Source of the DNA: Eledone cirrhosa
Lineage: Eukaryota
Reading direction: 5' to 3'
DNA: 64,000 nt
Assembly (NCBI GenBank): GCA_964016885.1
Contig: OZ024740.1
Location: 157,356,001-157,420,000 of the forward strand
Of this stretch, positions 2,096 through 35,420 are shown piece by piece. Each line of letters starts with the position of its first letter. Position 1 is the stretch's first letter. The notes below the pieces were generated by a model. The model saw only the letters and a program-made list of their open reading frames with translations, did no database searches and was not told the DNA's origin. The translations under genes and the position numbers were made by a program.

Positions 2096-2214
2096 GTCAT
2101 TATTGAAAGTCTCTACATTTCGCAAAATACATAATATTTTTTATTGGAGAAGGTAAGATATTTTTCCACAAAAATTTGATTGCACTTATGTATTTTTCGA
2201 CAATGTTATTTATT

Positions 2215-2470
2215 TTTAGCGAGTTGGTCGCAGGGTTATTTACTTCAGTAAATACCATTGCAGGCCAACCACTAATTTAATTAGATAACGGATATAGAAA
2301 AACTTTTGTGTATTTGCGCTCGTGTGTGAACAGTTCAAGAGCCTGTCGCCAAAGAGAGAGATTGCTCTTTGCTCCCTCCTTTATAATTCCTAGAACGGAG
2401 GTTCAAGGAATACTCTAGAATTCTACGGGTAGTTACTCTAGCTACTTCCCTTTGTCTAGAGAGCGCTACA
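2215..2470 (-). repeat. 3' LTR (256 bp)
   Basis: Matches 4724-4979 with about 9 substitutions by manual count. Minus-strand termini are TGTAG...CTAAA. Confidence 0.93.
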
Positions 2471-2483
2471 AGACTCCCCTCTC
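2471..2483 (-). promoter_or_regulatory. Polypurine tract
   Basis: Minus strand GAGAGGGGAG-tct lies immediately before the TG of the 3' LTR. Confidence 0.85.
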
Positions 2484-2855
2484 AGACGAGAAGTCGAATA
2501 ACCAACCGAAGGTCATTGTAGCGAGAACCCGTAAGAAATGAGGAGCAAAACAAAGGTACAAGAAAGTGCATGAATAAAACATGAGCTCGCAACTGAAGCA
2601 AACAGCAAAAGGTACAAAACAAGTAAATGCATTTTACAAAGAATAAATTTTTTGCTGCACAAGGATGATGCAGAAAAAATGTAAATGTCACAAAACTGAT
2701 AATTCAAAGGTAACATAAAGGAGCAGAGAAAAATTAATGCTCAATGGTTAGTTCAAAGTTTCTTCAAAAATCAAATAGTTCATACATCACCAGTGTACAG
2801 ACTTTTCTGACACTAGTTCTATCTGAAAAAAGAAGTTTGTTATTGCCACAAGGGG

Positions 2856-3887
2856 TTAAATGTATATAGTTTTTGACAATTTACTTGGCCATTTCACTGT
2901 TCTGCCACTTCGTGTGACATAAGGTTGTTTGGTATGTGGTGTTTGTGGTGGAGGTGAAGGTGTTGGTGTGGGAATGAATGTACGAGGTATGTCAGGCAAT
3001 GTAATGAGACTTTCAGAGAAAGCCCTCTTTGCCCTGTCAATGGATATTGTCTCTTTTCGACCATTGACAGCCACTTTGAAATGTTTTGGTGTGTGCGAAA
3101 GCACACGAAAAGGTCCATTATAGGGTGACGTAAGCGGTCTCTTGACGTAATTATTCCGTATAAAAAATGTGTGTCCACGTAGAGATGTCCGATGGAACAG
3201 CAGAAGAAATAGACTGATCACGAGAGTTCATTGGTGGAAGATCCGAGAAGTAAGAATGAATGCTGGTGACATATGATGTTGGATCAAGATGCGATGAATC
3301 AACCGGTGCTAGCATTTGACCGGGAAGAGTCAAGGTGGTACCGTAAAGAAGTTCAGCTGAGGAGAAACCTAAATCTGGCTTAACGGCAGAACGACAACCT
3401 GGAAGCACGATTGGCAAAAATTCTGTCCAACGTTGCGGATCAGGAGTAGCGCGAAGTGCAGCTTTCAACTGTCTGTGAAACCTCTCCACCATTCCATTGG
3501 AGGCTGGGTGATAGCTGGTCGTATGAATGTGATGAGCACCCAAAAGTCGTGAATTTCATGAAATAAAGAGGCCTCGAACTGGCGTCCTCGATCCGTGGTT
3601 ATTTTAGAAGGAACACCAAAGCGAGCAATCCAATTGGAAATGAAAGCTCGGGCAACGTACTCTGCTGTTATGTCCACTAAGGGTATTGCTTCAGGCCACC
3701 GAGAGAAACGATCGGTACAGGTCAATATATATGTGAACCCACGACTAACGGGCCATGGACCAACAATATCCATGTGAATGTGACGGAAACGAGCGTCCGG
3801 CGGGCTGAATTTACCAAGAGGAGCGCGAACATGCCGATGAACCTTGGAGCGCTAACACTGAAAACAAGAACGTGCCCAACCAGTGAT
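2856..3887 (-). pseudogene. Gypsy integrase remnant (CxxC half of the zinc finger, rve core, GPF/Y C-terminus) with frameshifts and a stop
   Basis: [58 protein letters not shown] and PYNGPFRV are spread over three ORFs. Confidence 0.93.
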
Positions 3888-3917
3888 TAAACGACGTCTG
3901 TTGTGAAAGTTACAACG

Positions 3918-4710
3918 ATAGCAGATGTGTCGTCTCTCACGGAGGAAGATTTCACTAAACAAGTCGAAAAATGTGTTTATATTTTGAAGAAAGCAGGAAC
4001 GAGAAGCTGGCAGGAATAATGATGGTAACTAAACTAATCAAAGCTGACAAATGTGATTCCCAGAGCCAAAAGTTACTGTTTGATGCCATAGGCTTCAAGT
4101 TTCTTGTCGGGTTACTGCGTTCAGCCAAAGTCCCTGAAGGGTGCAGTAAATATATATACAAGTCATTATCTCTCACCATTCTCTCCAGTTTCTCAGGATT
4201 ACAACATGTGAAGGAAGATCCTCGAATGTTCACCTCCATTCCACTTATAATTGATGTCCTCATCTCTTGTCTCAATATTGATGAAATGCTGGATGAAACT
4301 GAACTGACAGAAGAGGAGTTCAAATCCATGGTTGACAGTTGTTATGATTGCTTAACATCTGTTTGTACAACAGACAAAGGAAGGACAACATTGATAGACT
4401 CCAGATCTGTGTCACATCTGTGTACTTGCTATATACATGCTACTTATAGTAATCAACGGGCTTTGGCTGTGATACAGCAGATTATCTCAGCAAATGGTGC
4501 CGGAATTTGGACAAAGAATGTGAAGGGTCTCCAAGAACTATTGGCTTATCTAGGAGAGAATTTTTTCCAGTCAAAAGAAGCTGAAAAGTTCCAGTTTTGT
4601 GACATCCTTGCCAATATCTTCAGCAATATTTCAAAAGAGAACATCCCAAAAGGTAACTTTAGTTGGCAGAAAAACATACCAAAAGGAATAATGGACTTGA
4701 TTAAATCACG
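3918..4710 (+). pseudogene. NCDN: Neurochondrin-like N-terminal fragment (about 260 codons, no introns), antisense to the LTR element
   Basis: NEKLAGIMMVTKLIKA, LLFDAIGFKFL, VPEGC, SMVDSCYDCLTSV, SVSHLCTCY and EKFQFCDIL are collinear with the neurochondrin N-terminus as I recall it (SEQFAALLLVTKAVKA, RIFDAVGFTFP, APDGC, SMIDDTYQCLTAV, TVSALCQAY, SKFELCQLL). The probable original start is ATA at 3918 (xADVSSLTEEDFTKQVEKCVYILKKAG), with a frameshift near 3998. Confidence 0.88.
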
Positions 4711-4722
4711 TCAGGGTCACCA
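4705..4722 (-). promoter_or_regulatory. Primer binding site, tRNA-Trp
   Basis: Minus strand TGGTGACCCTGACGTGAT, 1 nt after the 5' LTR. It is complementary to the tRNA-Trp 3' end (AUCACGUCGGGGUCACCA) with one G-U pair. Confidence 0.9.
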
Positions 4723-4723
4723 C

Positions 4724-4979
4724 TTTAGCGAGTTGGTCGCAGGGTTATTTACTTCAGTAAATACCACTGAAGGCCAACCACTAATTTAATTAGATAACAG
4801 ATTTAGAAAAACTTTTGTGTATTTGCGCTCGTGTGTGAACAGTTCAAGAGCCTGTCGCCAAAGAGAGAGATTGCTCTTTGCTCCCTCCTTTATAATTCCT
4901 AGAACGGAAGTTCAAGGAATACTCTAGAATTCTACGGGAAGTAACTCTGGCTACTTCCCTTTGTCTAGAGAGCACTACA
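4724..4979 (-). repeat. 5' LTR (256 bp) with TATAAA at 4894-4889
   Basis: Direct repeat of 2215-2470, followed on the minus strand by the PBS. Confidence 0.93.
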
Positions 4980-5072
4980 TATTCATTATAAAAATTAAAT
5001 AATAGCATTCTATATGTAGGTGGGCCCCCTTCATCTCCTTGCAACCAATATTTTTAGACCCAGTCCGCCACT

Positions 5073-5246: not shown

Positions 5247-6858
5247 TTCTTTTTCTCTTAATTTATGACCGGCCACCTTCCTGGTAGCAAGATTGTAAAA
5301 GAAAAGATATTGTCATCCTTTGAATCGCAAGTATGTTTTGCAAATTTTGAAGGTGCCAGCTATCACAGCCATTTGTAGTCTATGAATTAAGGTGCTGCTC
5401 TTTTTGTCCATAAATCCAAGTTCAGTCATACTTTGGTCCAAGCGGGTTGGTATATAACCTGTAGCTCCAATAATGATGGGTATGATGCTGGAGGTGTATC
5501 GTGAATACTGGATCTGCAAACTCCTCATCAATGGTCTGTAAATGTCTTCTTTCTCTTGTATTTTTCTTACAACGTTGACATCAAGTGGGCAGCTGATCTC
5601 TACAATAGAGCACGTTTTCAATGTGTGGTCCCAAACAACAATATCAGGCCGGTTGTGCTTAAATTTGGAAGCAGTTTTTATTTTCAGGTTCTACCATATT
5701 TCCTTACTGCCATCTGTCTCAACATATTCCTCCTCATTTGTTTTTAATTTTGTTTTCCGAAGTGCATTCCAGATGGTTCTAGCTATCACATCGTGTCTCA
5801 TGGGGAGGTAGTAGCGAGATGACACTCTTTCACAGTTGGAAATCATGTGGCTAACATCTTCGATCTTTGTTTTTCATAGCCTATATTTATTGTCGATTAA
5901 TGGCCCTCCTCTTTGTGTAGTATATTTTTGGTAGGGATTTCTTGTTCCTGTGTTGCATAGAGATATCCTTCAAGGTGGGATGTCATAAACTTGTCGGAAC
6001 TCCATGGTAGGCCTTTTGAATGATTTATCCCCTCTATGGTGTGTGATTTTCATCTCAGGTACCCATGCACAAATTTCTCTGTAAATTGGTCCATTTTTTA
6101 ACTTGTTCGAGCATTGAATAGGATCTTCGAATGATCCTGGGAAAGAGATTTATGTCAGGCCTTATTCCTTATCTCTCCTCTAGATCAGTGGCTATCCTAT
6201 AGAGTTACGGCCCTTGCCATCCTCAGTTCAAATCCTGCCGAGGTTAACTTTGCCATTCATCCTTACGGGGTCGATAAAATAAAGTACCAGTAATGTACTG
6301 GGTAATTGCTGGCCTTGTGCCAAACATAGAAACAATTATTTCTTTCATGCTCATAAACATGGGCAAGATGGTTGCCAACCTTTTTCCTCTGTTGAAGATG
6401 TTGCTTCAGTGTTACTATCCGGGTCTCATATGTTAATATGGATTTTAGACCCCGGCCACCTTCCTTGCGTGAGAAGTATAGCCTATCCACATCACCATTG
6501 ATGTTAAAGTTCCCAGTAACACTGAGAAGTTTGCGAGTTCTAACATCCATCTCACTTAGTTCTTGCAATGACCAGTTCAGCAGGCCAAATGTTGGCGTTA
6601 GAATTGGCACAGCATAAGTATTGTGGGCAATGTACTTGTTGTACGCTGACAGTTCTGATGAGCCATATTTTCTTTACTCTTCTAAGGTATTCAGTTCTGG
6701 TTCTTTCCTTATTTATGGGTCAATCACATCTCATCCTGTCCAAGATATCTGTAGTTGTTACCTGGCTGTAGAGGTTGTATAGTCAAGCCGTTCATCTCAA
6801 GATTTCCAGAGGAAGGCACAACCCTTCAACGTTTTACTGTCAAATATGCACATTTGCC
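5247..6858 (-). mobile_element. Dong/R4-type RLE LINE, 3' portion (family A), interrupted by a SINE
   Basis: YRYLG, RLYFSRKEGGRGL, RHD, HNRPDIVVWD, VEISCP; ends in ACATACATAC. Confidence 0.85.
6190..6340 (+). mobile_element. tRNA-derived SINE (5' truncated)
   Basis: B-box GTTCAAATCC plus the core CATCCTTACGGGGTCGATAAAATAAAGTACCAG and the tail GCTGGCCTTGTGCC, shared with many copies in the window. Confidence 0.85.
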
Positions 6859-7549: not shown

Positions 7550-8627
7550 TAACATCATATGAGACCCGGATAGTAACACTGAAGCAACATCTTCAACAGA
7601 GGAAAAAGGTTGGCAACCATCTTGCCCAGGTTTATGAGCATGAAAAAAAATATATCAGTAGAATAGCCACTGATCTGGAGGAGAGATATGGAATAAAGCC
7701 TGATATAAATCTCTCACCCAGAGAAATCGGAAGATCCTATTCAATGTTCAAACAAGATGAAAAAATTGACCAATTTACAGAAAAAGTTGTGCATGGATAC
7801 TTGAGACGTAAAACACAGACCATAGAGGCGATAAACCACTTAAAAAGCCTGGCATGGAGTTCCGACAAGTTTATGACATCACACCTTGAGGGATATCTCT
7901 ATGCAATACAGGAACAAGAATTCCCTACCAAATATCTGCTGCACAAAAGAGGAGGGCCAGCAGCTGACAATAAATGTAGGCTACGTAAAACAAAGATCGA
8001 GGATGTAAGCCACATTGTTGCCAGCTGCGAAAGAATGTCATCTCGCTACTACCTCCCCATGAGACACGATGGGATAGCTAGAACCATCTGGAACGCACTT
8101 CGGAAAACAAAATTAACAACAAACGAGGAAGAATATATTGAGACAGATGGCACTAAGGAATACTGGTGGATCCTGAAAATAAAAACTGCCACCAAATTAA
8201 AGCACAACCGGCCTGATATTGTTGTTTGGGACCACACATTGAAAACGTGTTCTGTTGTGGAGATCAGCTGCCCACTTGATGTAAACGTTGTCAGAAATAT
8301 ACAGGAGAAGGAGGACATCTACGGACCATTGATGAGGAGTTTACAAATCCAGTATCCAAGATACACCTTTAGCTTCATACCCATCATTATTGGAGCTACG
8401 GGTTATATACCAACCCGTTTGGACCAAAGTATGACTGAACTTGGATTTGCGGACAAAGAGCGCAGCTCCCTAATTCATAGTCTACAAATGGCTGCGATAG
8501 CTGGCACCTTCAAAATTTGCAAAACATTCTTGCGATTCAAGGGATGACAATTTCTTTTCTTTTACAACCTTGCTACCAGGAAGGTGGCCGGTCAAAAAAA
8601 TATACCCGAAATTAAGAGATGGAGATA
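7550..8627 (+). mobile_element. 5'-truncated Dong/R4-type LINE (family A): zinc knuckle and restriction-like endonuclease
   Basis: ORF 7744-8547: AIQEQ, KCRL..EDVSHIVASC, RHD, HNRPDIVVWD, VEISCP, K..IY. Bracketed by (TACA)n. Confidence 0.9.
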
Positions 8628-19554: not shown

Positions 19555-19745
19555 AGGAGGAGGAGGAGGAGGAGGAGGAGGGGGAGGGGGAGGAGTAGAA
19601 GGAGAAGAAGAAGAAGAAGAAGAAGAAGAAGAAGAAGAAGAAGAAGAAGAAGAAGAAGAAGAAGGAGGAGGAGGAGGAGGAGGAGGAGAAGAAGAAGAAG
19701 AAGAAGAAGAAGAAGAAGAAGAAGAAGAAGAAGAAGAAGAAGAAG
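19484..19745. repeat. (GTC)n(GGA)n(GAA)n compound trinucleotide repeat
   Basis: Directly visible; shorter versions at 25134-25198 and 30261-30322. Confidence 0.95.
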
Positions 19746-20189
19746 GCTCTCCCCTTCTACCGAGAGAGGAACTTGTTCCATATAACGTTACAGGTGATAT
19801 TTGATAGGAAATCTTTGCTGGAATTGTTCTCCACGCAATACAATGCCTATATCAATAAATATCAACACCTATTTTTTACCTCCGTACAATTGGGTAAGTA
19901 TTCCACAGAAACGAGTACACTTAACGTGGGGATTCAGTGTGAGACAGTAAGTACGATATTTTTCTTTTAATCTCAATTTATTAACCATTTAATTTTATAA
20001 CGTCCCACTTTCAGATTTCCTTTTTGCCTGCTTTCTACCTAGCCTTATTTCATACACATTCCTTAGAATTTGCTGTAGATTAAATAGTAGAGTGGGATAA
20101 TAATGGGATGGCTCAAACGACATGCAAAAGTACCTGAAATATTGACCATACTTAAATTTGGAATGATACGCGATCTCCCCCCCCCCCCC

Positions 20190-20800
20190 CCTCTCCCAAC
20201 AGCCCCGGGCGTACACGATGGAGAAGGCGTTTCCCCGGAGGACGGCAAGGGAGACGCGCTGGAAAAGCCACTCCAACTCGCGGGGCTCACACCTGCGGCT
20301 GGCCAGCTCAGCGCCTATAGTGGTGAGTAGGGAGGTAGCCCTAGGGTCGAGGACACTAGAAGTCTCCACTGCCAGGGGTACAACCGCAAACCTGTCGGAG
20401 AGCGACCGGTATTTGAGGAGTTTGGCCCCCTCAGCCCGACATGCAGCAGAACCTGGGTTAGTCGCAGACTGCACCAGGTTGCGGCTGTAGAAAGAGTCGG
20501 CGTAAGTGGCATCTCAGACGAGGGGTTTGCCACCGCGAAACGGGAAGATGGTCATGCCATCTGGCCTTTTGCCGTCTCCTCGGTCCAACCCCACCGGCTC
20601 GAGCTGGGAAGGGAAGCCTGCAGCGTCCAAGCCATGCTTTATGACCTCGTTCAGGGCAGCATGGCGTGGAAGGCGGCTGGCACTGTGGGGACAGGAAAGC
20701 GGGTGGAGGCCGAAAGAGTCCACGCTGGATCCGCAGCGACATTGGTGTAGCTCGCAGATCCGGAAGCCAAGCCTCAAGCCTGGTAGTTTGTAATACAGGC
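20190..20800 (-). mobile_element. CRE-clade LINE C-terminal fragment (zinc knuckle + RLE), copy 1
   Basis: LRLG..CRCG..GLHPLSC..RHAALN..EPVGL..KRPDG..VETS..QRVSLAVLRGNA. Confidence 0.85.
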
Positions 20801-20829
20801 ACATCTCATTTATTATCGACTGAGCTTGA

Positions 20830-21570
20830 GCAATCAATTAATCCATGCTCATCAGTTCATTGGCCGGCAGATGTTACACCCTCACTGATATCTCATCGGG
20901 TAAGTCATTCACGAACACCAGCCGTACAGCCTTTTCCATACCTTCACCTGTAAATCCAGACAGTGTGACCACCTCACCTTTCCTAGTTTGGCAAATGCAG
21001 CGTACGACCCATCTGTGAACGAGTCTGTAGCAGTGGCCTCCCTTGTTGTGACTCACAACCCCAATAGATTAACAACATCTAGACGGGAAGTACAACCCTT
21101 TCTGTAACTTCCGGCAGAGCCCTATAAAACGAATAGCTTTCGGCTCTCTCCCTCTCATTAGCCCTTCCGGCGCCTGGCCTTCGCCAGGCGTTTTCTGCCA
21201 GCCTGCGTTTGCCTGGCAATCAAAACGGTAACTACTAACTTTGCTTCATTCTTTCGTTTATTCATTGACATGTCAACTATACTGTTAAATTGTTGATTAA
21301 ATATTATACACACAAACCATGTCTCCTTGTTACATTCATACACGCTAGTTATTCGCTATAAGTCCCTTAGGCGCCATTCAATCTTCTCTGCGTCCAGTTG
21401 GTCTGCTTCATCCATCTTGAGGTACAACGCCGATGCATTTTCCTCCAAGTACAATGCCATGAGACCTACCACACTTTTTATACCTTACAACCTGGTCATC
21501 ACCTTGATCTTTCGAATCCAGGCGATTACATCTCCCTCGCTACAGAAGAGTTTGATGGCATCACTACTTT
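20830..21570 (-). mobile_element. LTR-retrotransposon gag-like fragment, copy 1, split by a solo LTR
   Basis: GDVIAWIRKIKV..LYLEENASALY..RDSFTDG..VRLVFVNDLPDEIS. Confidence 0.65.
21026..21360. mobile_element. Solo LTR (335 bp) with 4-bp TSD AGTC
   Basis: Termini TGTAGC...GCTATA; AGTC at 21022-21025 and 21361-21364; absent from units 2 and 3; internal TATAAAA. Confidence 0.85.
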
Positions 21571-23173
21571 GTCGACATATTGTCTGTGGGCCAGAGAAGA
21601 GAGACATGTCGAAATAGCTTGTAGTAAGGGAAAAAAACACTGCTCACCTACCTCGCGGTTCGTCTCTTGTCGTTCATTTTGTCCAGATGGGGTATACCCG
21701 TGTGTGCTCTACCTGCCTAATTTCTGGCCAGAACCTAACAACATATATAGCGAAGACACGCGGCAAAACATGTCCGTTGGACACGACAGTCCGAAACGCA
21801 GAGACACACCACATTGGTCCTACTTTCCCTTACGTGACGTCATTCGCCCTTATTCTTCTGGCAAAGCCATCCAGCCCCATGACGTCACTGACCTTTATAC
21901 TTCTTTGAAAGTGGTTAAACGATATAAATGTTACTTATTGGTGTATTAACTGGGTACTCAATCGCTGTAATGAAATACCAAAACAAGACTGAAACTAATC
22001 TGGTTGATCCCTCTCTTTGTGTCCATGAAGACATTGTATATACTAACTAGGTGTTTACATCAGTCTATACATACATTATTGGGGAAAAGTCTTTGGATAT
22101 ACTTTATAGTACAATATTGCATGGGCGCAAAACACTATTATCGTACCGGTGGTAAGAAACTCTCAGGAGAGCTGGACAGCATAAGGTCTTTATTGTAAAT
22201 TCGAAAGGGCCTGGAGCTTCAACTGTTATGGGAACTACGTCGGGTGTCCCTTGGGGATTAGTGGCTCTGAACGTTAAGTTTCATAACAACTTTCCTTGCT
22301 CTCATTGGTATGGTGATTAATATTTTAGTTCCAAAGCTGGCTAATATCTTCCTTACCGAGTATTGTTATATGAAACTGACAAACATAATAAGAACTTGTT
22401 GATCGGGCAAAAACTGTTGTCTAAGATTAAAAGGGATCGATTTTCACAGTATTACCACTCAATTATTATTAAAGGTTTGTTTTGTCTATTGAGTCTTGCG
22501 TTAACTGCTGATTCTCTTTTTCTGTATTGGGTTCTATAATGCTGCTGAATAAATTTGTTTGGAACATGTTTTGTACATTATAATATTCATATAACTTGAC
22601 GACGTTGAAATCGAGGCTGACAGGGCCTCGTTTTGATTTCGTGCTTGCGCTAAAATTCTTCTTCCGGTCAGACATGTTTGCAATTTGTGACATACAAGCG
22701 CTAACTGATTTCAAGTAAAATTAATTATATAAACAAATTTAACTAAGGCATTTAATTAATAAATTAAAATAATAATTTAAAAAAAAAAAAAAATCTGTCG
22801 TCTGCGTCAACATCATACACATTGGAGACTCAGGAACGATGTTTCCCAACAGGAAGTAAGTGACATATTTAATCTCTCTACTGAATTCACGAATTAACTC
22901 CAGCTAATCTCTTTCTGAAAATTCTCCATTTCACACTAATATTCATGTTGCTTTGCATATTTTATTTCCTAGACGTTTTATATATGTATGTGTCTTTGTT
23001 CGACAGCAGCACTACTAACACAGCGTGATTTAGAATTATAAACTTGCTAAATACTACTATTTTGGGATCGAAATGTTTCTTATATATATAAGAAACACAC
23101 ACACATATATATGTGTGTCTGTGTGGCTGTTATATAATATTTCTTTTGTGTGTATGTATTTATATATATATAA

Positions 23174-23206
<33 letters not shown>

Positions 23207-23284
23207 ACTACACGTGTCTCCTCCAAGAAACAAATTTCTTCCGTTTTCTTTTACACTCGTCTATCTCTTTCTTCTCTCTCTCTC

Positions 23285-23320
23285 TCTTTCGATGAAGGTC
23301 TAATGTCCGAAACGTTAAGA
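23285..23320 (+). ncRNA. Variant minimal hammerhead-like motif (also at 28412-28447 and 33551-33586)
   Basis: UCUU-UCGAUGA-AGG ucuaaugu CC-GAAA-CG-UU-AAGA; palindromic AACGUU stem III but a non-canonical core start. Confidence 0.5.
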
Positions 23321-23411
23321 CACTTTTCCTTCTCTATCAGCCATTTAACTAATATATATCATCTTTGTACTGTATTCTCCCATGTTTTTCGTTGATGACT
23401 TTTCTCCTACA

Positions 23412-23675
23412 CATCATCATCATCATCGTTTAACGTCCATCTTCCACGCTTGCATGGGTTTGGACGGGAGTTTTCCCACTTGAGGCAAGATTGGTTGTCT
23501 TGCTCGTATAGGACTATCGGGTGGGTTTTCTACGGCTGGATTCCCTTCCTAACACCAACCACGTTTACAGTGTGGACTGGGAGGTTTTTACCGTGTTACC
23601 TACACGGCCACATTACAGCGTGGACTGTGTTTTTTTTTTTGTCGTGACACCTACACGACCTCATTTGTTTCGGAC
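23412..23675 (-). mobile_element. RTE LINE 3' UTR with (GAT)n tail (repeated in each tandem unit)
   Basis: Reverse complement of 49640-49890. Confidence 0.85.
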
Positions 23676-23699
23676 TACACACACATATATATATATATA

Positions 23700-25133
23700 G
23701 GGCGGGTAAAATTCCCGAGATCCATGGACGAGTTCTCTCCAACGGTCTCCGTCCTTTATCATCACCACCATGTATGTATTTCCCAGAGACGAGTGTCTGT
23801 CCTTAGTGCATCAATATATGTCATCCTCGGTCTCCCTCTTTTAGTGTGTCCTTGTAGGAGCTCCCACAGGACTATTGTGTGCAGTGTCAACTCTGAATGT
23901 CGGTGAACATGTCCAGCTAACCTCAGTCTCCTCTGTGTTACTTTCAAACTGACTTTTAGGACGCTCACATACAGCTCTGAGTTCTTCATCCTCAGTGTAT
24001 ACTGATTAATGTTCAGAGCCATCTTCAGCATTCTCGTATAGCACCCATCCACTATCTGAGTGAGTCTCTTGGTCAGTGTTCAAGTCTCAGACCCGTACAG
24101 CAGCACAGACTCCACTGTAGCGACAAAGAGACGGATTTTCAGGTCTTTACAAAGGTCCAACTCAATCAATCTGTGACACTCTGCCTAGGCTTTGCTCTTC
24201 CTCTCCACCACATCATCGTCAATATTCCCAATCGTTGCTCCCAGATACAGGAAGTCCTCAACCAACTCTAGTGGTTTCCCCGCCTAATTCATAATCTTCA
24301 CTGTCTTAATGTTCTCTAACAGATACTTCATCTTACTCTCATTCATTCTCAGCCCCACACTCATCAACACTGTCTATGCCTCCTTCACTGTGTTTGTCAC
24401 CAGAACTATGTCATCAGCAAAGTCAGCATTTGATATTTTTTTAGCCTTAACTCTTCTGCTCTGAGCCAGTGCTACAGTAAAGCCCAAGCCTTGGTGTTTC
24501 TCCAGTGTAAGGTGCAGACAATAGTCCACTGCGATGATAAAAAGTTAGGGAGCCAATGTATCTCCCTGGAGCACTCCAGCCAGTATCTCAAAGAACTCTC
24601 TCATCCCGTCAAGAGTAATGACTTGGACTCTGGTGTTGGTGTAAAGCAGTGATATCAATTCCACTATCTTCTTGGGGGATCCATAAGCCAGTAAGATCTT
24701 GATCAGTGAGTGACGGTCCACAGAATCAAAGGCCTTCCGAAAGTCAATGAAAACCATGACAGCAGGAAGGCTCTTTGCTCTGGCTCGCTCTAATAGCCGC
24801 CTCAGCATCAGAATGTGACTGGTGATTGGTCTTCCCTCTCTGAAGCCGTTCTGGTTGTCTCTGAGCTTCTTCTCCATCTCGGGCTGGATTCTGTTAAGAA
24901 CGATCCTGTTGAGGGTCTTTGCCACAAGTGACGTCAGTGAGTTTCCCCTGTAGTTGTTGGTGTTAGAGATATCTTCCTTTTTTGTACTGGGGTGATGATA
25001 CTGATCTGCCACTGATCCAGGGCAACTCCTTTCTCCAGTATCTGGTTACAGAACTCCAGGATGATATCATCAAAATCACACCTCTTCATCACCTCTGATG
25101 CCACTCCATCTTGTCCATAGGCCTTCCCCCTCC
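23700..25133 (-). mobile_element. RTE-like LINE RT remnant, copy 1
   Basis: NYRG.SL, QNGFR, FIDFRKAFDSV, GVLQGDTLAP, DGCYTRML, RRLRLAGH, RGRP. Confidence 0.85.
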
Positions 25134-25654
25134 GTCGTCGTCGTCGTCGAAGAAGAAGAAGAAGAAGAAGAAGAAGAAGGTAGCGGCGGCGGCGGCGGCT
25201 CTCCCCTTCTACCGAGAGAGGAACTTGTTCCATATAACGTTACTGGTGATATTTGATAGGAAATCTTTGCTGGAATTGTTCTCCACGCAATACAATGCCT
25301 ATATCAATAAATATCAACACCTATTTTTTACCTCCGTACAATTGGGTAAGTATTCCACAGAAACGAGTACACTTAACGTGGGGATTCAGTGTGAGACAGT
25401 ATGTACGATATTTGTCTTTTAATCTCAATTTATTAACCATTTAATTTGATAACGTCCCACTTTCAGATTTCCTTTTTGCCTGCTTTCTACCTAGCCTTAT
25501 TTCATACACATTCCTTAGAATTTGCTGTAGATTAAATAGTAGAGTGGGATAATAATGGGATGGCTCAAACGACATGCAAAAGTACCTGAAATATTGGCAT
25601 ATATTCTTCATTGACCATACTTAAATATGGAATGATACGCGATCCCCCCCCCCC

Positions 25655-26265
25655 TCTCTCCCAACAGCCCCGGGCGTACACGATGGAGAAGGCGTTTCCC
25701 CGGAGGACGGCAAGGGAGACGCGCTGGAAAAGCCACTCCAACTCGCGGGGCTCACACCTGCGGCTGGCCAACACAGCGCCTATAGTGGTGAGTAGGGAGG
25801 TAGCCCTAGGGTCGAGGACACCAGAAGTCTCCACTGCCAGAGGTACAACCGCAAACCTGTCGGAGAGCGACCGGTATTTGAGGAGTTTGGTCTCATCAGC
25901 CCGACATGCAGCAAAACCTGGGTTAGTCGCAGACTGCACCAGGTTGTGGCTGTAGAAAGAGTCGGCGCAAGTGGCATCTCAGACGAGGGGTTTGCCACCG
26001 CGAAACGGGAAGATGGTCATGCCATCTGGCCTTTTGCCGTCTCCTCGGTCCAGCCCCACCGGCTCGAGCTGGGAAGGGAAGCCTGCAGCGTCCAAGCCAT
26101 GCTTTATGACCTCGTTCAGGGCAGCATGGCGTGGAAGGCGGCTGGCACTGTGGCGACAGGAAAGCGGGTGGAGGCCGAAAGAGTCCACGCTGGATCCGCA
26201 GCGACATTGGTGTGGCTCGCAGATCCGGAAGCCAAGCCTCAAGGCTGGTAGTTTGTAATACAGGC
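25655..26265 (-). mobile_element. CRE-clade LINE fragment, copy 2
   Basis: Same motifs as 20190-20800. Confidence 0.85.
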
Positions 26266-26294
26266 ACATCTCATTTATTATCGACTGAGCTTGA

Positions 26295-26700
26295 GCAATC
26301 AATTAATCCATGCTCATCAGTTCATTGGCCGGCAGATGTTACACCCTCACTGATATCTCATCGGGTAAGTCATTCACGAACACCAGCCGTACAGCCTTTT
26401 CCATACCTTCACCTGTAAATCCAGACAGTGTGACCACCTCACCTTTCCTAGTTTGGCAAATGCAGCGTACGACCCATCTGTGAACGAGTCCCTTAGGTGC
26501 CATTCAATCTTCTCTGCGTCCAGTTGGTCTGCTTCATCCATCTTGAGGTACAACGCCGATGCATTTTCCTCCAAGTACAATGCCATGAGACCTACCACAC
26601 TTTTTATACCTTGCAACCTGGTCATCACCTTGATCTTTCGAATCCAGGCTATTACATCTCCCTCACTACAGAAGAGTTTGATGGCATCACTACTTTGTCG
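26295..26700 (-). mobile_element. gag-like fragment, copy 2 (no solo LTR)
   Basis: ORF 26374-26766. Confidence 0.65.
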
Positions 26701-28300
26701 ACATATTGTCTGTGGGCCAGAGAAGAGAGACATGTCGAAATAGCTTGTAGTAAGGGAAAAAAACACTGCTCACCTACCTCGCGGTTCGTCTCTTGTCGTT
26801 CGTTTTGTCCAGATGGGGTATACCCGTTTGTGCTCTACCTGCCTAATTTCTGGCCAGAACCTAACAACATATATATAGCGAAGACACGCGGCAAAACATG
26901 TCTGTTGGACACGACAGTCCGAAACGGAGAGACAGACCACATCGGTCCTACTTTCCCTTACGTGACGTCATTCGCCCTTATTCTTCTGGCAAAGCCATCC
27001 AGCCCCATGACGTCACTGACCTTTATACTTCTTTGAAAATGGTTAAACGATATAAATGTTACTTATTGGTGTATTAACTGGGTACTCAATCGCTGTAATG
27101 AAATACCAAAACAAGACTGAAACTAATCTGGTTGATCCCTCTCTTTGTGTCCGTGAAGACATTGTATATACTAACTAGGTGTTTACATCAGTCTATACAT
27201 ACATTATTGGGGAAAAGTCTTTGGATTTACTTTATAGTACAATATTGCATGGGCGCAAAACACTATTATCGTACCAGTGGTAAGAAACTCTCAGGAGAGC
27301 TGGACAGCATAAGGTCTTTATTGTAAATTCGAAAGGGCCTGGAGCTTCAACTGTTATGGGAACTACCTTGGGTGTCCCTTGGGGATTAGTGGCTCTGAAC
27401 GTTAAGTTTCATAACAACTTTCCTTGCTCTCATTGGTATGGTGATTAATATTTTAGTTCCAAAGCTGGCTAATATCTTCCTTACCGAGTATTGTTGTATG
27501 AAACTGACAAACATAATAAGAACTTGTTGATCGGGCAAAAACTGTTGTCTAAGATTAAAAGGGATCGATTTTCACAGTATTACCACTCAATTATTATTAA
27601 AGGTTTGTTTTGTCTATTGAGTCTTGCGTTAACTGCTGATTCTCTTTTTCTGTATTGGGTTCTATAATGCTGCTGAATAAATTTGTTTGGAACATGTTTT
27701 GTACATTATAATATTCATATAACTTGACGACGTTGAAATCGAGGCTGACAAGCCTCGTTTTGATTTCGTGCTTGCGCTAAAATTCTTCTTCCGGTCAGAC
27801 ATGTTTGCAATTTGTGACATACAAGCGCTAACTGATTCCAAGTAAAATTAATTACATAAACAAATTTAACTAAGGCATTTAATTAATAAATTAAAATAAT
27901 AATTTAAAAAAAAAAAAAAATCTGTCGTCTGCGTCAACATCATACACATTGGAGACTCAGGAACGATGTTTCCCAACAGGAAGTAAGTGACATATTTAAT
28001 CTCTCTACTGAATTCACGAATTAACTCCAGCTAATCTCTTTCTGAAAATTCTCCATTTCACACTAATATTCATGTTGCTTTGCATATTTTATTTCCTAGA
28101 CGTTTTATATATGTATGTGTCTTTGTTCGACAGCAGCACTACTAACACAGCGTGATTTAGAATTATAAACTTGCTAAATACTACTATTTTGGGATCGAAA
28201 TGTTTCTTATATATATAAGAAACACACACACATATATATGTGTGTCTGTGTGGCTGTTATATAATATTTCTTTTGTGTGTATGTATTTATATATATATAA

Positions 28301-28333
<33 letters not shown>

Positions 28334-28826
28334 ACTACACGTGTCTCCTCCAAGAAACAAATTTCTTCCGTTTTCTTTTACACTCGTCTATCTCTTTCTT
28401 CTCTCTCTCTCTCTTTCGATGAAGGTCTAATGTCCGAAACGTTAAGACACTTTTCCTTCTCTATCAGCCATTTAACTAATATATATCATCTTTGTACTGT
28501 ATTCTCCCATGTTTTTCGTTGATGACTTTTCTCCTACACATCATCATCATCATCGTTTAACGTCCATCTTCCACGCTTGCATGGGTTTGGACGGGAGTTT
28601 TCCCACTTGAGGCAAGATTGGTTGTCTTGCTCGTATAGGACTATCGGGTGGGTTTTCTACGGCTGGATTCCCTTCCTAACACCAACCACGTTTACAGTGT
28701 GGACTGGGAGGTTTTTACCGTGTTACCTACACGGCCACATTACAGCGTGGACTGTGTTTTTTTTTTTGTCGTGACACCTACACGACCTCATTTGTTTCGG
28801 ACTACACACACATATATATATATATA

Positions 28827-30260
28827 GGGCGGGTAAAATTCCCGAGATCCATGGACGAGTTCTCTCCAACGGTCTCCGTCCTTTATCATCACCACCATGT
28901 ATGTATTTCCCAGAGACGAGTGTCTGTCCTTAGTGCATCAATATATGTCATCCTCGGTCTCCCTCTTTTAGTGTGTCCTTGTAGGAGCTCCCACAGGACT
29001 ATTGTGTGCAGTGTCAACTCTGAATGTCGGTGAACATGTCCAGCTAACCTCAGTCTCCTCTGTGTTACTTTCAAACTGACTTTTAGGACGCTCACATACA
29101 GCTCTGAGTTCTTCATCCTCAGTGTATACTGATTAATGTTCAGAGCCATCTTCAGCATTCTCGTATAGCACCCATCCACTATCTGAGTGAGTCTCTTGGT
29201 CAGTGTTCAAGTCTCAGACCCGTACAGCAGCACAGACTCCACTGTAGCGACAAAGAGACGGATTTTCAGGTCTTTACAAAGGTCCAACTCAATCAATCTG
29301 TGACACTCTGCCTAGGCTTTGCTCTTCCTCTCCACCACATCATCGTCAATATTCCCAATCGTTGCTCCCAGATACAGGAAGTCCTCAACCAACTCTAGTG
29401 GTTTCCCCGCCTAATTCATAATCTTCACTGTCTTAATGTTCTCTAACAGATACTTCATCTTACTCTCATTCATTCTCAGCCCCACACTCATCAACACTGT
29501 CTATGCCTCCTTCACTGTGTTTGTCACCAGAACTATGTCATCAGCAAAGTCAGCATTTGATATTTTTTTAGCCTTAACTCTTCTGCTCTGAGCCAGTGCT
29601 ACAGTAAAGCCCAAGCCTTGGTGTTTCTCCAGTGTAAGGTGCAGACAATAGTCCACTGCGATGATAAAAAGTTAGGGAGCCAATGTATCTCCCTGGAGCA
29701 CTCCAGCCAGTATCTCAAAGAACTCTCTCATCCCGTCAAGAGTAATGACTTGGACTCTGGTGTTGGTGTAAAGCAGTGATATCAATTCCACTATCTTCTT
29801 GGGGGATCCATAAGCCAGTAAGATCTTGATCAGTGAGTGACGGTCCACAGAATCAAAGGCCTTCCGAAAGTCAATGAAAACCATGACAGCAGGAAGGCTC
29901 TTTGCTCTGGCTCGCTCTAATAGCCGCCTCAGCATCAGAATGTGACTGGTGATTGGTCTTCCCTCTCTGAAGCCGTTCTGGTTGTCTCTGAGCTTCTTCT
30001 CCATCTCGGGCTGGATTCTGTTAAGAACGATCCTGTTGAGGGTCTTTGCCACAAGTGACGTCAGTGAGTTTCCCCTGTAGTTGTTGGTGTTAGAGATATC
30101 TTCCTTTTTTGTACTGGGGTGATGATACTGATCTGCCACTGATCCAGGGCAACTCCTTTCTCCAGTATCTGGTTACAGAACTCCAGGATGATATCATCAA
30201 AATCACACCTCTTCATCACCTCTGATGCCACTCCATCTTGTCCATAGGCCTTCCCCCTCC
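28827..30260 (-). mobile_element. RTE-like LINE RT remnant, copy 2
   Basis: Near-identical to 23700-25133. Confidence 0.85.
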
Positions 30261-30777
30261 GTCGTCGTCGTCGTCGAAGAAGAAGAAGAAGAAGAAGAAG
30301 AAGGTAGCGGCGGCGGCGGCGGCTCTCCCCTTCTACCGAGAGAGGAACTTGTTCCATATAACGTTACTGGTGATATTTGATAGGAAATCTTTGCTGGAAT
30401 TGTTCTCCACGCAATACAATGCCTATATCAATAAATATCAACACCTATTTTTTACCTCCGTACAATTGGGTAAGTATTCCACAGAAACGAGTACACTTAA
30501 CGTGGGGATTCAGTGTGAGACAGTATGTACGATATTTGTCTTTTAATCTCAATTTATTAACCATTTAATTTGATAACGTCCCACTTTCAGATTTCCTTTT
30601 TGCCTGCTTTCTACCTAGCCTTATTTCATACACATTCCTTAGAATTTGCTGTAGATTAAATAGTAGAGTGGGATAATAATGGGATGGCTCAAACGACATG
30701 CAAAAGTACCTGAAATATTGGCATATATTCTTCATTGACCATACTTAAATATGGAATGATACGCGATCCCCCCCCCC

Positions 30778-31388
30778 TCTCTCCCAACAGCCCCGGGCGT
30801 ACACGATGGAGAAGGCGTTTCCCCGGAGGACGGCAAGGGAGACGCGCTGGAAAAGCCACTCCAACTCGCGGGGCTCACACCTGCGGCTGGCCAACACAGC
30901 GCCTATAGTGGTGAGTAGGGAGGTAGCCCTAGGGTCGAGGACACCAGAAGTCTCCACTGCCAGAGGTACAACCGCAAACCTGTCGGAGAGCGACCGGTAT
31001 TTGAGGAGTTTGGTCTCATCAGCCCGACATGCAGCAAAACCTGGGTTAGTCGCAGACTGCACCAGGTTGTGGCTGTAGAAAGAGTCGGCGCAAGTGGCAT
31101 CTCAGACGAGGGGTTTGCCACCGCGAAACGGGAAGATGGTCATGCCATCTGGCCTTTTGCCGTCTCCTCGGTCCAGCCCCACCGGCTCGAGCTGGGAAGG
31201 GAAGCCTGCAGCGTCCAAGCCATGCTTTATGACCTCGTTCAGGGCAGCATGGCGTGGAAGGCGGCTGGCACTGTGGCGACAGGAAAGCGGGTGGAGGCCG
31301 AAAGAGTCCACGCTGGATCCGCAGCGACATTGGTGTGGCTCGCAGATCCGGAAGCCAAGCCTCAAGGCTGGTAGTTTGTAATACAGGC
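30778..31388 (-). mobile_element. CRE-clade LINE fragment, copy 3
   Basis: Near-identical to copy 2. Confidence 0.85.
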
Positions 31389-31417
31389 ACATCTCATTTA
31401 TTATCGACTGAGCTTGA

Positions 31418-31823
31418 GCAATCAATTAATCCATGCTCATCAGTTCATTGGCCGGCAGATGTTACACCCTCACTGATATCTCATCGGGTAAGTCATTCAC
31501 GAACACCAGCCGTACAGCCTTTTCCATACCTTCACCTGTAAATCCAGACAGTGTGACCACCTCACCTTTCCTAGTTTGGCAAATGCAGCGTACGACCCAT
31601 CTGTGAACGAGTCCCTTAGGTGCCATTCAATCTTCTCTGCGTCCAGTTGGTCTGCTTCATCCATCTTGAGGTACAACGCCGATGCATTTTCCTCCAAGTA
31701 CAATGCCATGAGACCTACCACACTTTTTATACCTTGCAACCTGGTCATCACCTTGATCTTTCGAATCCAGGCTATTACATCTCCCTCACTACAGAAGAGT
31801 TTGATGGCATCACTACTTTGTCG
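31418..31823 (-). mobile_element. gag-like fragment, copy 3
   Basis: ORF 31497-31889. Confidence 0.65.
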
Positions 31824-33422
31824 ACATATTGTCTGTGGGCCAGAGAAGAGAGACATGTCGAAATAGCTTGTAGTAAGGGAAAAAAACACTGCTCACCTAC
31901 CTCGCGGTTCGTCTCTTGTCGTTCGTTTTGTCCAGATGGGGTATACCCGTTTGTGCTCTACCTGCCTAATTTCTGGCCAGAACCTAACAACATATATATA
32001 GCGAAGACACGCGGCAAAACATGTCTGTTGGACACGACAGTCCGAAACGGAGAGACAGACCACATCGGTCCTACTTTCCCTTACGTGACGTCATTCGCCC
32101 TTATTCTTCTGGCAAAGCCATCCAGCCCCATGACGTCACTGACCTTTATACTTCTTTGAAAATGGTTAAACGATATAAATGTTACTTATTGGTGTATTAA
32201 CTGGGTACTCAATCGCTGTAATGAAATACCAAAACAAGACTGAAACTAATCTGGTTGATCCCTCTCTTTGTGTCCGTGAAGACATTGTATATACTAACTA
32301 GGTGTTTACATCAGTCTATACATACATTATTGGGGAAAAGTCTTTGGATTTACTTTATAGTACAATATTGCATGGGCGCAAAACACTATTATCGTACCAG
32401 TGGTAAGAAACTCTCAGGAGAGCTGGACAGCATAAGGTCTTTATTGTAAATTCGAAAGGGCCTGGAGCTTCAACTGTTATGGGAACTACCTTGGGTGTCC
32501 CTTGGGGATTAGTGGCTCTGAACGTTAAGTTTCATAACAACTTTCCTTGCTCTCATTGGTATGGTGATTAATATTTTAGTTCCAAAGCTGGCTAATATCT
32601 TCCTTACCGAGTATTGTTGTATGAAACTGACAAACATAATAAGAACTTGTTGATCGGGCAAAAACTGTTGTCTAAGATTAAAAGGGATCGATTTTCACAG
32701 TATTACCACTCAATTATTATTAAAGGTTTGTTTTGTCTATTGAGTCTTGCGTTAACTGCTGATTCTCTTTTTCTGTATTGGGTTCTATAATGCTGCTGAA
32801 TAAATTTGTTTGGAACATGTTTTGTACATTATAATATTCATATAACTTGACGACGTTGAAATCGAGGCTGACAAGCCTCGTTTTGATTTCGTGCTTGCGC
32901 TAAAATTCTTCTTCCGGTCAGACATGTTTGCAATTTGTGACATACAAGCGCTAACTGATTCCAAGTAAAATTAATTACATAAACAAATTTAACTAAGGCA
33001 TTTAATTAATAAATTAAAATAATAATTTAAAAAAAAAAAAAAATCTGTCGTCTGCGTCAACATCATACACATTGGAGACTCAGGAACGATGTTTCCCAAC
33101 AGGAAGTAAGTGACATATTTAATCTCTCTACTGAATTCACGAATTAACTCCAGTTAATCTCTTTCTGAAAATTCTCCATTTCACACTAATATTCATGTTG
33201 CTTTGCATTTTTTATTTCCTAGACGTTTTATATATGTATGTGTCTTTGTTCGACAGCAGCACTACTAACACAGCGTGATTTAGAATTATAAACTTGCTAA
33301 ATACTACTATTTGGGGATCGAAATGTTTCTTTTATATATAAGAAACACACACACATATATATGTGTGTGTGTGGCTGTTATATAATATTTCTTTTGTGTG
33401 TGTGTATTTATATATATATAAC

Positions 33423-33471
<49 letters not shown>

Positions 33472-33962
33472 CTACACGTGTCTCCTCCAAGAATCAAATT
33501 TCTTCCGTTTTCTTTTACACTCGTCTATCTCTTTCTTCTCTCTCTCTCTCTCTTTCGATGAAGGTCTAATGTCCGAAACGTTAAGACACTTTTCTTTCTC
33601 TATCAACCATTTAACTAATATATATCATCTTTGTACTGTATTCTCCCACGTTTTTCGTTGATGACTTTTCTCTTACACATCATCATCATCATCGTTTAAC
33701 GTCCATCTTCCACGCTTGCATAGGTTTGGACGGGAGTTTTCCCACTTGAAGCAAGATTGGTTGTCTTGCTCGTATAGGACTGTCTGGCGGGTTTTCTACG
33801 GCTGGATTCCCTTCCTAACACCAACCACGTTTACAGTGTGGACTGGGAGGTTTTTACCGTGTTACCTACACGGCCACATTACAGCATGGACTGTGTTTTT
33901 TTTTTGTCGTGACACCTACACGACCTCATTTGTTTTGGACTACACACACATATATATATATA

Positions 33963-35420
33963 GGGCGGGTAAAATTCCCCGAGATCCATGGACGAGTTCT
34001 CTCCAGCGGTCTCCGTCCTTTATCATCGCCACCATGTATGTATTTCCCAGAGACGAGTGTCTGTCCTTAGTGCATCAATATATGTCATCCTCGGTCTCCC
34101 TCTTTTAGTGTGTCCTTGTAGGAGCTCCCACAGGACTATTGTGTGCAGTGTCAACTCTGAATGTCGGTGAACATGTCCAGCTAACCTCAGTCTCCTCTGT
34201 GTTACTTTCAAACTGACTTTTAGGAGGTTCACATACAGCTCTGAGTTCTTCATCCTCAGTGTATACTGATTAATGTTCAGAGCCATCTTCAGCATTCTCG
34301 TATAGCACCCATCCACTATCTGAGTGAGTCTCTTGGTCAGTGTTCAAGTCTCAGACCCGTACAGCAGCACAGACTCCACTGTAGCGACAAAGAGACGGAT
34401 CTTCAGGTCTTTACAAAGGTCCAACTTCCACACCAATCTCAAACTGTGACACTCTGCCTAGGCTTTGCTCTTCCTCTCCACCACATCATCGTCAATATTC
34501 CCAATCGTTGCTCCCAGATACAGGAAGTCCTCAACCAACTCTAGTGGTTTCCCCGCCTAATTCATAATCTTCACTGTCTTCTTAATGTTCTCTAACAGAT
34601 ACTTCATCTTACTCTCATTCATTCTCAGCCCCACACTCATCAACACTGTCTATGCCTCCTTCACTGTGTTTGTCACCAGAACTATGTCATCAGCAAAGTC
34701 AGCATTTGATATTTTTTTAAGGCTTAACTCTCCTGCTCTGAGCCAGTGCTACACTAAAGCCCAAGTCTTGGTGTTTCTCCAGTGTAAGGTGCAGACAATA
34801 GTCCACTGCGATGATAAAAAGTTAGGGAGCCAATGTATCTCCCTGGAGCACTCCAGCCAGTATCTCAAAGAACTCTCTCATCCCGTCAAGAGTAATGACT
34901 TGGACTCTGGTGTTGGTGTAAAGCAGTGATATCAATTCCACTATCTTCTTGGGGGATCCATAAGCCTGTAAGATCTTGATCAGAGAGTGACGGTCCACAG
35001 AATCAAAGGCCTTCCGAAAGTCAATGAAAACCATGACAGCAGGAAGGCTCTTTGCTCTGGCTCGCTCTAATAGCCGCCTCAGCATCAGAATGTGACTGGT
35101 GGTCTCTCTGAAGCCGTTCTGGTTGTCTCTGAGCTTCTTCTCCATCTCGGGCTGGATTCTGTTAAGAACGATCCTGTTGAGGGTCTTTGCCACAAGTGAC
35201 GTCAGTGAGATCCCCCTGTAGTTTTGGTGTTAGAGAGATCTTCCTTTTTTTGTACTGGGGTGATGATACTGATCTGCCACTGATCCAGGGCAACTCCTTT
35301 CTCCAGTATCTGGTTACAGAACTCCAGGATGATATCATCAAAATCACACCTCTTCATCACCTCTGATGCCACTCCATCTTGTCCATAGGCCTTCCCCCTC
35401 CTTGATCTGAGTTTCAGACT
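33963..35420 (-). mobile_element. RTE-like LINE RT remnant, copy 3 (diverged; continues past the array end)
   Basis: ORFs 34023-34316 and 34822-35193. Confidence 0.85.

Follow-up and report, generated by a model that had tools for sequence, protein, structure and literature searches.

The window, the whole stretch of 64 kb of DNA that was analyzed (G000:C1:157356001-157420000 of the 3.0-Gb Eledone cirrhosa genome), carries on its minus strand, at 2215-4979, a gypsy-type LTR element flanked by a 4-bp TSD. Between its LTRs lies a piece of a host messenger RNA in antisense orientation. The features of the locus, numbered from the first letter of the window, are as follows.

2211..2214: TSD TATT, on the 3′ side of the element
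2215..2470, minus strand: 3′ LTR, 256 nt, TGTAG...CTAAA
2474..2483, minus strand: polypurine tract (PPT) GAGAGGGGAG; an equal tract precedes the 3′ LTRs in family copies
2856..3896, minus strand: broken integrase remnant (Pfam rve, E=3.5e-11), collinear with family copies at 90-95%
3896..3897: far junction, element ...AAACGACG / TCTGTTG host, with one shared G and an imperfect G..TGTT similarity
3897..4712, plus strand: spliced 5′ part of the NCDN (neurochondrin) mRNA, 8 exons, antisense to the element (Pfam Neurochondrin, E=9.7e-52)
3918..3920, plus strand: former NCDN start codon, ATG in the parent, ATA in the insert
4705..4712: 8-nt overlap ATCACGTC, common to the parent mRNA and the 3′ end of tRNA-Trp
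4705..4722, minus strand: 18-nt tRNA-Trp-type PBS TGGTGACCCTGACGTGAT; its position 10 (4713) is T
4724..4979, minus strand: 5′ LTR, 256 nt
4980..4983: TSD TATT, on the 5′ side of the element

The LTRs, PBS, PPT, TSD and the order of the pol domains are those of a Ty3/gypsy LTR retrotransposon, the copy itself being devoid of RT. Integrase lies downstream of RT: the rve match falls at reference position >3150, and the RT-like frames of relatives, which we take to be RT from their motifs, occupy ~1950-2800. The LTRs end in TG...AA across the family. The two LTRs of the element differ at 9 of 256 nt (~1.8% per LTR), and the TSD is confirmed by an empty-site paralogue near 1075-1090, 1 kb upstream, in which TATT is present as a single copy. 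Intact family copies are ~4.6-4.9 kb long. The element lacks ~2.9 kb, from the leader through the start of integrase and including gag; by motif reading, the first residues of the integrase remnant presumably belong to the zinc-binding region.

The element is hosted by a short dispersed repeat (2095-2214 and 4980-5040), an uninterrupted paralogue of which lies within 950-1150. LINEs are plentiful in the 64-kb window, and the 3′ end of a LINE is found at 5262-6099 and again, inverted, at 7760-8598, the two copies being ~90% alike and 1.7-2 kb apart. A 5.1-kb unit forms about three tandem copies of 97-100% identity at 19677-35012, and a long repeat with 48-nt subrepeats occurs at 36000-59200 in several dispersed direct and inverted copies that are 60-97% alike.

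The captured NCDN piece is 816 nt long and encodes the N-terminal part of neurochondrin. Its parent lies on another chromosome (G000:C13:14234212-14261923), where the eight exons are spread over 27.7 kb, and all seven parent introns are missing from the insert. No further spliced NCDN copies were found in a search of the genome. The insert is pseudogenized, with its start codon changed and its frame shifted by a 7-nt deletion near 3997. It carries neither poly(A) nor a TSD or flanking repeat of its own and stops in the middle of the coding sequence at the PBS, and so lacks the poly(A) tail and own TSD of a LINE-made processed pseudogene. The initial annotation of this DNA had anticipated an insert free of introns and of its own TSD. 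Two of its figures required correction: the far breakpoint, thought to lie with the transcript 5′ end near 3888, is 9 nt away at 3896/3897, and 21 nt rather than ~30 nt of the insert precede the former start codon.

Compared with the parent, the insert shows 16 substitutions in ~820 nt, and compared with a spliced contig it shows 13. This divergence is similar to the age of the LTRs, which would follow if the mRNA was captured and the element inserted in a single event, with wide intervals on both values. A search for RNA data sets containing the insert listed none. The spliced contig derives from run X4, which was counted as RNA because the contig is spliced and carries the parent alleles. 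Contigs from X1 and X2 match the exon-junction alleles of the window with 0-1 differences and possibly come from the assembly's own sample. Upstream of the parent (L046:7650-8100), a TA-flanked element with short inverted ends is located ~150 nt 5′ of the first captured NCDN exon.

At the PBS-side junction the NCDN frame (IKSR) enters the complement of the PBS, ATCACGTCAGGGTCACCA at 4705-4722, directly and with no leader in between, just as had been described from the sequence; a single spacer base (4723) separates it from the 5′ LTR. The parent exon on G000:C13 is identical up to 4712 and diverges beyond. The microhomology predicted for the parent mRNA is therefore present at the breakpoint, and the shared 4705-4712 is complementary to the 8 terminal bases of a tRNA-Trp copy 18 nt in length, the identity of the tRNA having been confirmed. 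The parent reads AAATCACGTC, followed by TAG and the splice donor, which puts the breakpoint 3 nt before the donor. The spliced X4 contig goes on with TAGAACAG after the breakpoint, and since it diverges there, the mRNA offers no further pairing with the tRNA copy. Short homology on its own means little, as the insert and the deleted span have 803 six-mer pairs and 62 eight-mer pairs in common. What goes beyond chance is the location of the junction inside the PBS (~0.5% of the 2.9-kb span), the identity of three more bases with tRNA positions 16-18 (~1/64) and the family-wide pattern described below. The GAT at 16-18 is present in the host too and is thus not assignable to the tRNA by itself.

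Copies of subfamily A, which are ~95% like the LTR of the window, read TGGTGACCCAGACGT and then TTGAAC. Where a forward PBS is present in this subfamily, GAT at 16-18 is absent in 8/8 copies and position 10 is A in 7/8; in subfamily B, the PBS of leader-bearing copies measures 11-12 nt in 10/10. Position 10 as specified by 25 tRNA-Trp-like loci is C in 23, T in 2 and A in none. The window has T at this position, and both the subfamily and the NCDN parent have A. Thymine is one CpG transition away from the tRNA and a transversion away from subfamily and parent, so it can be derived from C by that transition or from the minor tRNA variant, an argument for tRNA origin that depends on a single base. 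Taken over the whole family, intact copies encode a PBS of just 11-15 nt, too short for an 18-nt tRNA copy to base-pair with its own template through to its end.

The strongest evidence for mis-priming at the PBS comes from a control within the family. All copies with a short forward PBS enter the normal leader (18/18), whereas none of the subfamily A and B ends with an 18-nt tRNA-type PBS, up to two differences being allowed, does so (0/17). For an earlier tally of 17 versus 16 the Fisher p value was 1.5e-8, to be read with the sampling in mind, as the sample consisted of top-scoring hits and pattern matches and was not random. L037 (an inverted family-type PBS) and L051 (5′ LTR cut, no PBS) were dropped from the tally, as were loci with LTRs of other subfamilies (L060, L070, L071, L075, L076, L097, L098, L230, L232, L235, L240 and L246-L249). 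L071, which belongs to a neighboring subfamily, has an 18-nt PBS yet enters the leader. In 7 of the 17 ends the PBS is followed by antisense RNA of the element itself (L077, both ends of L082, L079, L080, L085 and L099), in 5 by read-through into tRNA-Trp (L073, L081, L083, L084 and L234) and in 2 by a forward jump in sense (L074 and L086). The remaining 3 lead into antisense tRNA-SINE-like sequence (L059), other host sequence (L245) and NCDN at the locus of the window. After its tRNA read-through L083 continues with an antisense piece that we take, from its motifs, to be Penelope-like. A changed base after the PBS in the read-through copies would suit a misreading of modified A58, but one degenerate tRNA gene has it too.

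Several of the self-priming sites resemble the end of the tRNA. They include GACGTAAT, CGTGAT (at L085 and, in a neighboring subfamily, at L119) and GACG-CAT, and the match reaches 8/9 at L080; among background sites, 6/5983 match the tRNA end at a level of at least 7/9. Some sites pair poorly, with a 3-nt run at L077 and none at the sense jump of L074. L082 (G000:C6:44166-44169 kb) has an 18-nt PBS at both ends, both of which primed antisense at one integrase site adjoining the far junction of the window. L082, L059, L073 and L097 are elements with two inverted LTRs. Antisense RNAs of mobile elements behind a PBS also occur at L121 and L119 (gypsy gag, DUF7041, and pol), in addition to the SINE-like sequence of L059.

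The exact 18-mer of the 18-nt PBS occurs 470 times in the genome, and 93 of the first 100 loci listed were classified. Most of them fall into other tRNA-Trp families that normally carry the 18-nt PBS, with clusters of 24, 16, 10 and 8 loci among the 93 and the LTR cluster of L187 as one of these, so the marker is diagnostic only within the family of the window. The initial annotation had suggested a scan for other LTR and PBS sites followed by antisense mRNA. This was borne out in part, by a spliced host RNA at L187; a second protein-coding case was not found among the 93 of 470 sites, for which 43 first-batch ORFs were searched with Pfam and the rest inspected by eye. The 43 ORFs, all behind 18-nt PBS sites, gave matches only to a RING domain (L079) and DUF7041 (L121). 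At L187/L216 (G000:C1:396.02 Mb), in another family, the arrangement of the window's element recurs: the 18-nt PBS is followed by one base, antisense host RNA, pol in sense and the 3′ LTR. The host piece of ~740 nt looks non-coding and has lost a 1.7-kb GT-AG intron present at its source (G000:C1:208667203-208669626); the TSD is imperfect and pairing of the tRNA end is weak (ACGT and GGGG), the last three bases being unpaired.

Two captures of host sequence next to an 18-nt PBS have the sense orientation. At L079 (G000:C28:106.58 Mb) the PBS is followed by 60 nt of antisense LTR, a sense spliced RING-domain mRNA, which is presumably mind-bomb-like, its 3′ UTR and the LTR; four exon matches place the parent at G000:C4:84.29 Mb. 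At L129/L217 (G000:C1:149.61 Mb) the PBS is joined via CGTGAT to a piece of a CH-domain gene that is 99% identical to its source (G000:C4:47408098-47408561), and the TSD is GGTT. L129 belongs to a third tRNA-Trp family, in which one normal copy has a 14-nt PBS. Amplified forms were seen as well. In one LTR cluster of 21 loci (L100, L107, L110, L111, L122, L125, L128, L137 and others) and in the L101 cluster of 8 loci, the leader consists of the 18-nt PBS, tRNA-like read-through and a second LTR end with PBS. Both clusters were possibly founded by a strong-stop accident and then copied.

In comparison with the 8 nt on the PBS side, the far junction offers 1 nt of exact similarity and an imperfect match of 5 of 7. 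In the parent this point is preceded by CTAAT, which is branch-like, then by a run of pyrimidines and by TAG, resembling its seven true acceptors. The initiator consensus is YYANWYY, and TTAGTCT at the junction appears to us to fit it. The site would suit a transcription start as well as a splice acceptor. CpG o/e peaks at the first captured NCDN exon, and the spliced X4 contig starts at 3909, 12 nt into that exon, with no linked upstream piece; both are compatible with a start at the far junction and neither is decisive. L079 provides an example of an exon-edge junction produced by homology in the next exon. It is somewhat favored that the NCDN mRNA was copied to its cap. On the element side, the rejoining point lies one base from the site on element RNA at which both ends of L082 self-primed. 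The single model of the initial annotation for both breakpoints is well supported on the PBS side and leaves unexplained why rejoining took place beside a PBS-like self-priming site in integrase. Annealing of strong-stop DNA at that site could have cut or blocked the RNA, leaving a minus strand that ended at the rejoining point.

Plus-strand strong-stop DNA bearing an 18-nt copy of tRNA-Trp probably paired with AUCACGUC in a co-packaged NCDN mRNA and was extended. Analogous to Ty1 and Ty3, the first strong-stop product would normally be a dead-end molecule whose 3′ end stays free. Here it would have primed on the NCDN mRNA through 8 perfect base pairs, as the junction suggests, and RT would have copied 816 nt toward the mRNA 5′ end. 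In what is the least certain step, the end of the cDNA, at or near the transcript start, would have joined minus-strand DNA at the start of integrase, perhaps at the point where a cut or block at the PBS-like site had interrupted the element RNA. The product had two LTRs and integrated normally, leaving the 4-bp TSD seen at the locus. Strong-stop priming on a host mRNA at the PBS, already put forward in the initial annotation, is well supported by the microhomology, the intron-free insert, the tRNA-type PBS and the sister copies. The sequences directly show the layout of the element, an insert that is spliced and antisense, the 8-nt match, a PBS of the tRNA type, the association within the family and a normal integration; the co-packaging of the mRNA, the strong-stop priming and the manner in which the far end was rejoined are deduced.

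Of the other explanations, the one that survives best, itself unlikely, is that the minus strand switched to an NCDN cDNA lying free in the particle and came back to the element at the PBS through AGACGT homology. Switches driven by microsimilarity are a known route in the passages of Tan et al. (2016; PMC5131818), and the sense captures of the present genome show them, L079 rejoining via ACT and L129 via 12 nt. Such a switch leaves the primer of the cDNA unexplained, however, and it predicts no preference for junctions in the PBS and a family-type PBS, in which position 10 would be A and not the T of the window. It is quite improbable that a LINE made an NCDN retrocopy antisense in integrase, the 3′ part of which was later lost together with gag-pol in a 6-nt (AGACGT) microhomology deletion. 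This sequence of events would account for the absence of poly(A) and TSD, LINEs being abundant in the window, and AGACGT is common to the family-type PBS and the parent. Yet the deletion must have ended in a 15-nt PBS among ~800 equal six-mer options, the next three host bases must happen to equal tRNA 16-18 and position 10 must have changed from A to T; moreover, the other 16 rearranged tRNA-type ends go unexplained, and the insert is as old as the LTRs.

Very unlikely is a chimeric RNA template, copied whole, in which an antisense transcript from an element upstream of NCDN was spliced to the exon at 3897. The acceptor-like site at the far junction (CTAAT, pyrimidines, TAG) would suit it, but CA rather than GT follows the junction in family copies, neither the 8 kb upstream nor the gene parts examined contain element sequence, and 90 kb covering the surroundings and the upstream region of the first exon contain neither a donor ending in ACG nor AACGACG. 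A chimera of the assembly, which might be suspected as no listed contig spans an element-host junction, can practically be discarded in view of the paired LTRs and TSD, the empty-site paralogue, the spliced and diverged insert and the agreement of the X1 and X2 contigs with the exon-junction alleles. As each of these alternatives fails on the PBS type or on the family pattern, mis-priming of strong-stop DNA is preferred.

The NCDN-bearing element is a single dead copy, and the interest lies in the route of capture. A broader reading, for and against which we see equal weight, is that dead-end, tRNA-tailed strong-stop DNA recurrently serves as a primer in gypsy particles, picking from the co-packaged RNAs those that resemble the 3′ end of the tRNA, and so constitutes a second route of LTR retroposition, always antisense and under the LTR promoter. 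This would be a second mechanism of gene capture by LTR elements with a signature that can be scanned for, namely an LTR, an 18-nt tRNA copy and antisense RNA. It would also provide natural germline evidence, outside yeast, that tRNA-tailed strong-stop DNA is as a rule not passed on, and show what becomes of it when it escapes. If true, genomes keep a readable fossil record of the RNA cargo of particles and have at hand material from which antisense regulators of host genes could readily arise. Antisense captures under a putative LTR promoter might contribute to silencing of the parent gene by small RNAs. No account of an LTR retrotransposon whose plus strand primes on host mRNA came up in a full-text literature search, although a 1992 study by Dunn, Olsen and Swanstrom may cover this route. 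By its title that study concerns cell-derived inserts next to LTRs in unintegrated retroviral DNA; it is reportedly cited elsewhere as reverse transcription of packaged mRNA and may describe the mechanism of the window in cell culture.

In animals, partial spliced mRNAs are known to replace the internal ORFs between LTRs, with short homology at the joints (median 6 bp) and no poly(A), according to the passages of PMC5131818 (Tan et al., 2016). The window resembles these retrocopies in that an intron-less partial mRNA replaces internal sequence between two LTRs. In the model given there, RT switches twice on RNA, from which sense inserts would be expected, whereas in the window NCDN is on the plus strand and the element on the minus strand. 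The insert of the window also begins at base 18 of a tRNA-type PBS, and the first joint would be a priming event; the terms "PBS" and "plus-strand" are absent from the main text of PMC5131818.

On the side of the PBS the nearest likeness is with HIV-1. In aberrant second-strand transfer, as set out in the passages of PMC12657518, the plus strand does not transfer at the PBS; it may extend into the tRNA and is joined again further downstream, with the LTRs intact. L234 matches this closely, and the window shares with such products an 18-nt tRNA-templated PBS, non-leader sequence behind it and intact LTRs. In HIV-1 the acceptor is the viral minus strand, which gives deletions, and those passages do not mention priming on cellular mRNA; the products here are fixed in the germline.

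In Ty1 and Ty3, tRNA-tailed plus-strand strong-stop DNA is a dead-end product (section 2.2 of PMC5371799). Intact copies of the window's family likewise do not inherit the tRNA sequence, as that section reviews for Ty1 and Ty3, and keep a short, mismatched PBS; the difference is that here the tRNA-tailed product became integrated after priming on other RNAs. Both LTR-mediated retroposition and aberrant second-strand transfer are known, and the antisense route is what appears to be new.
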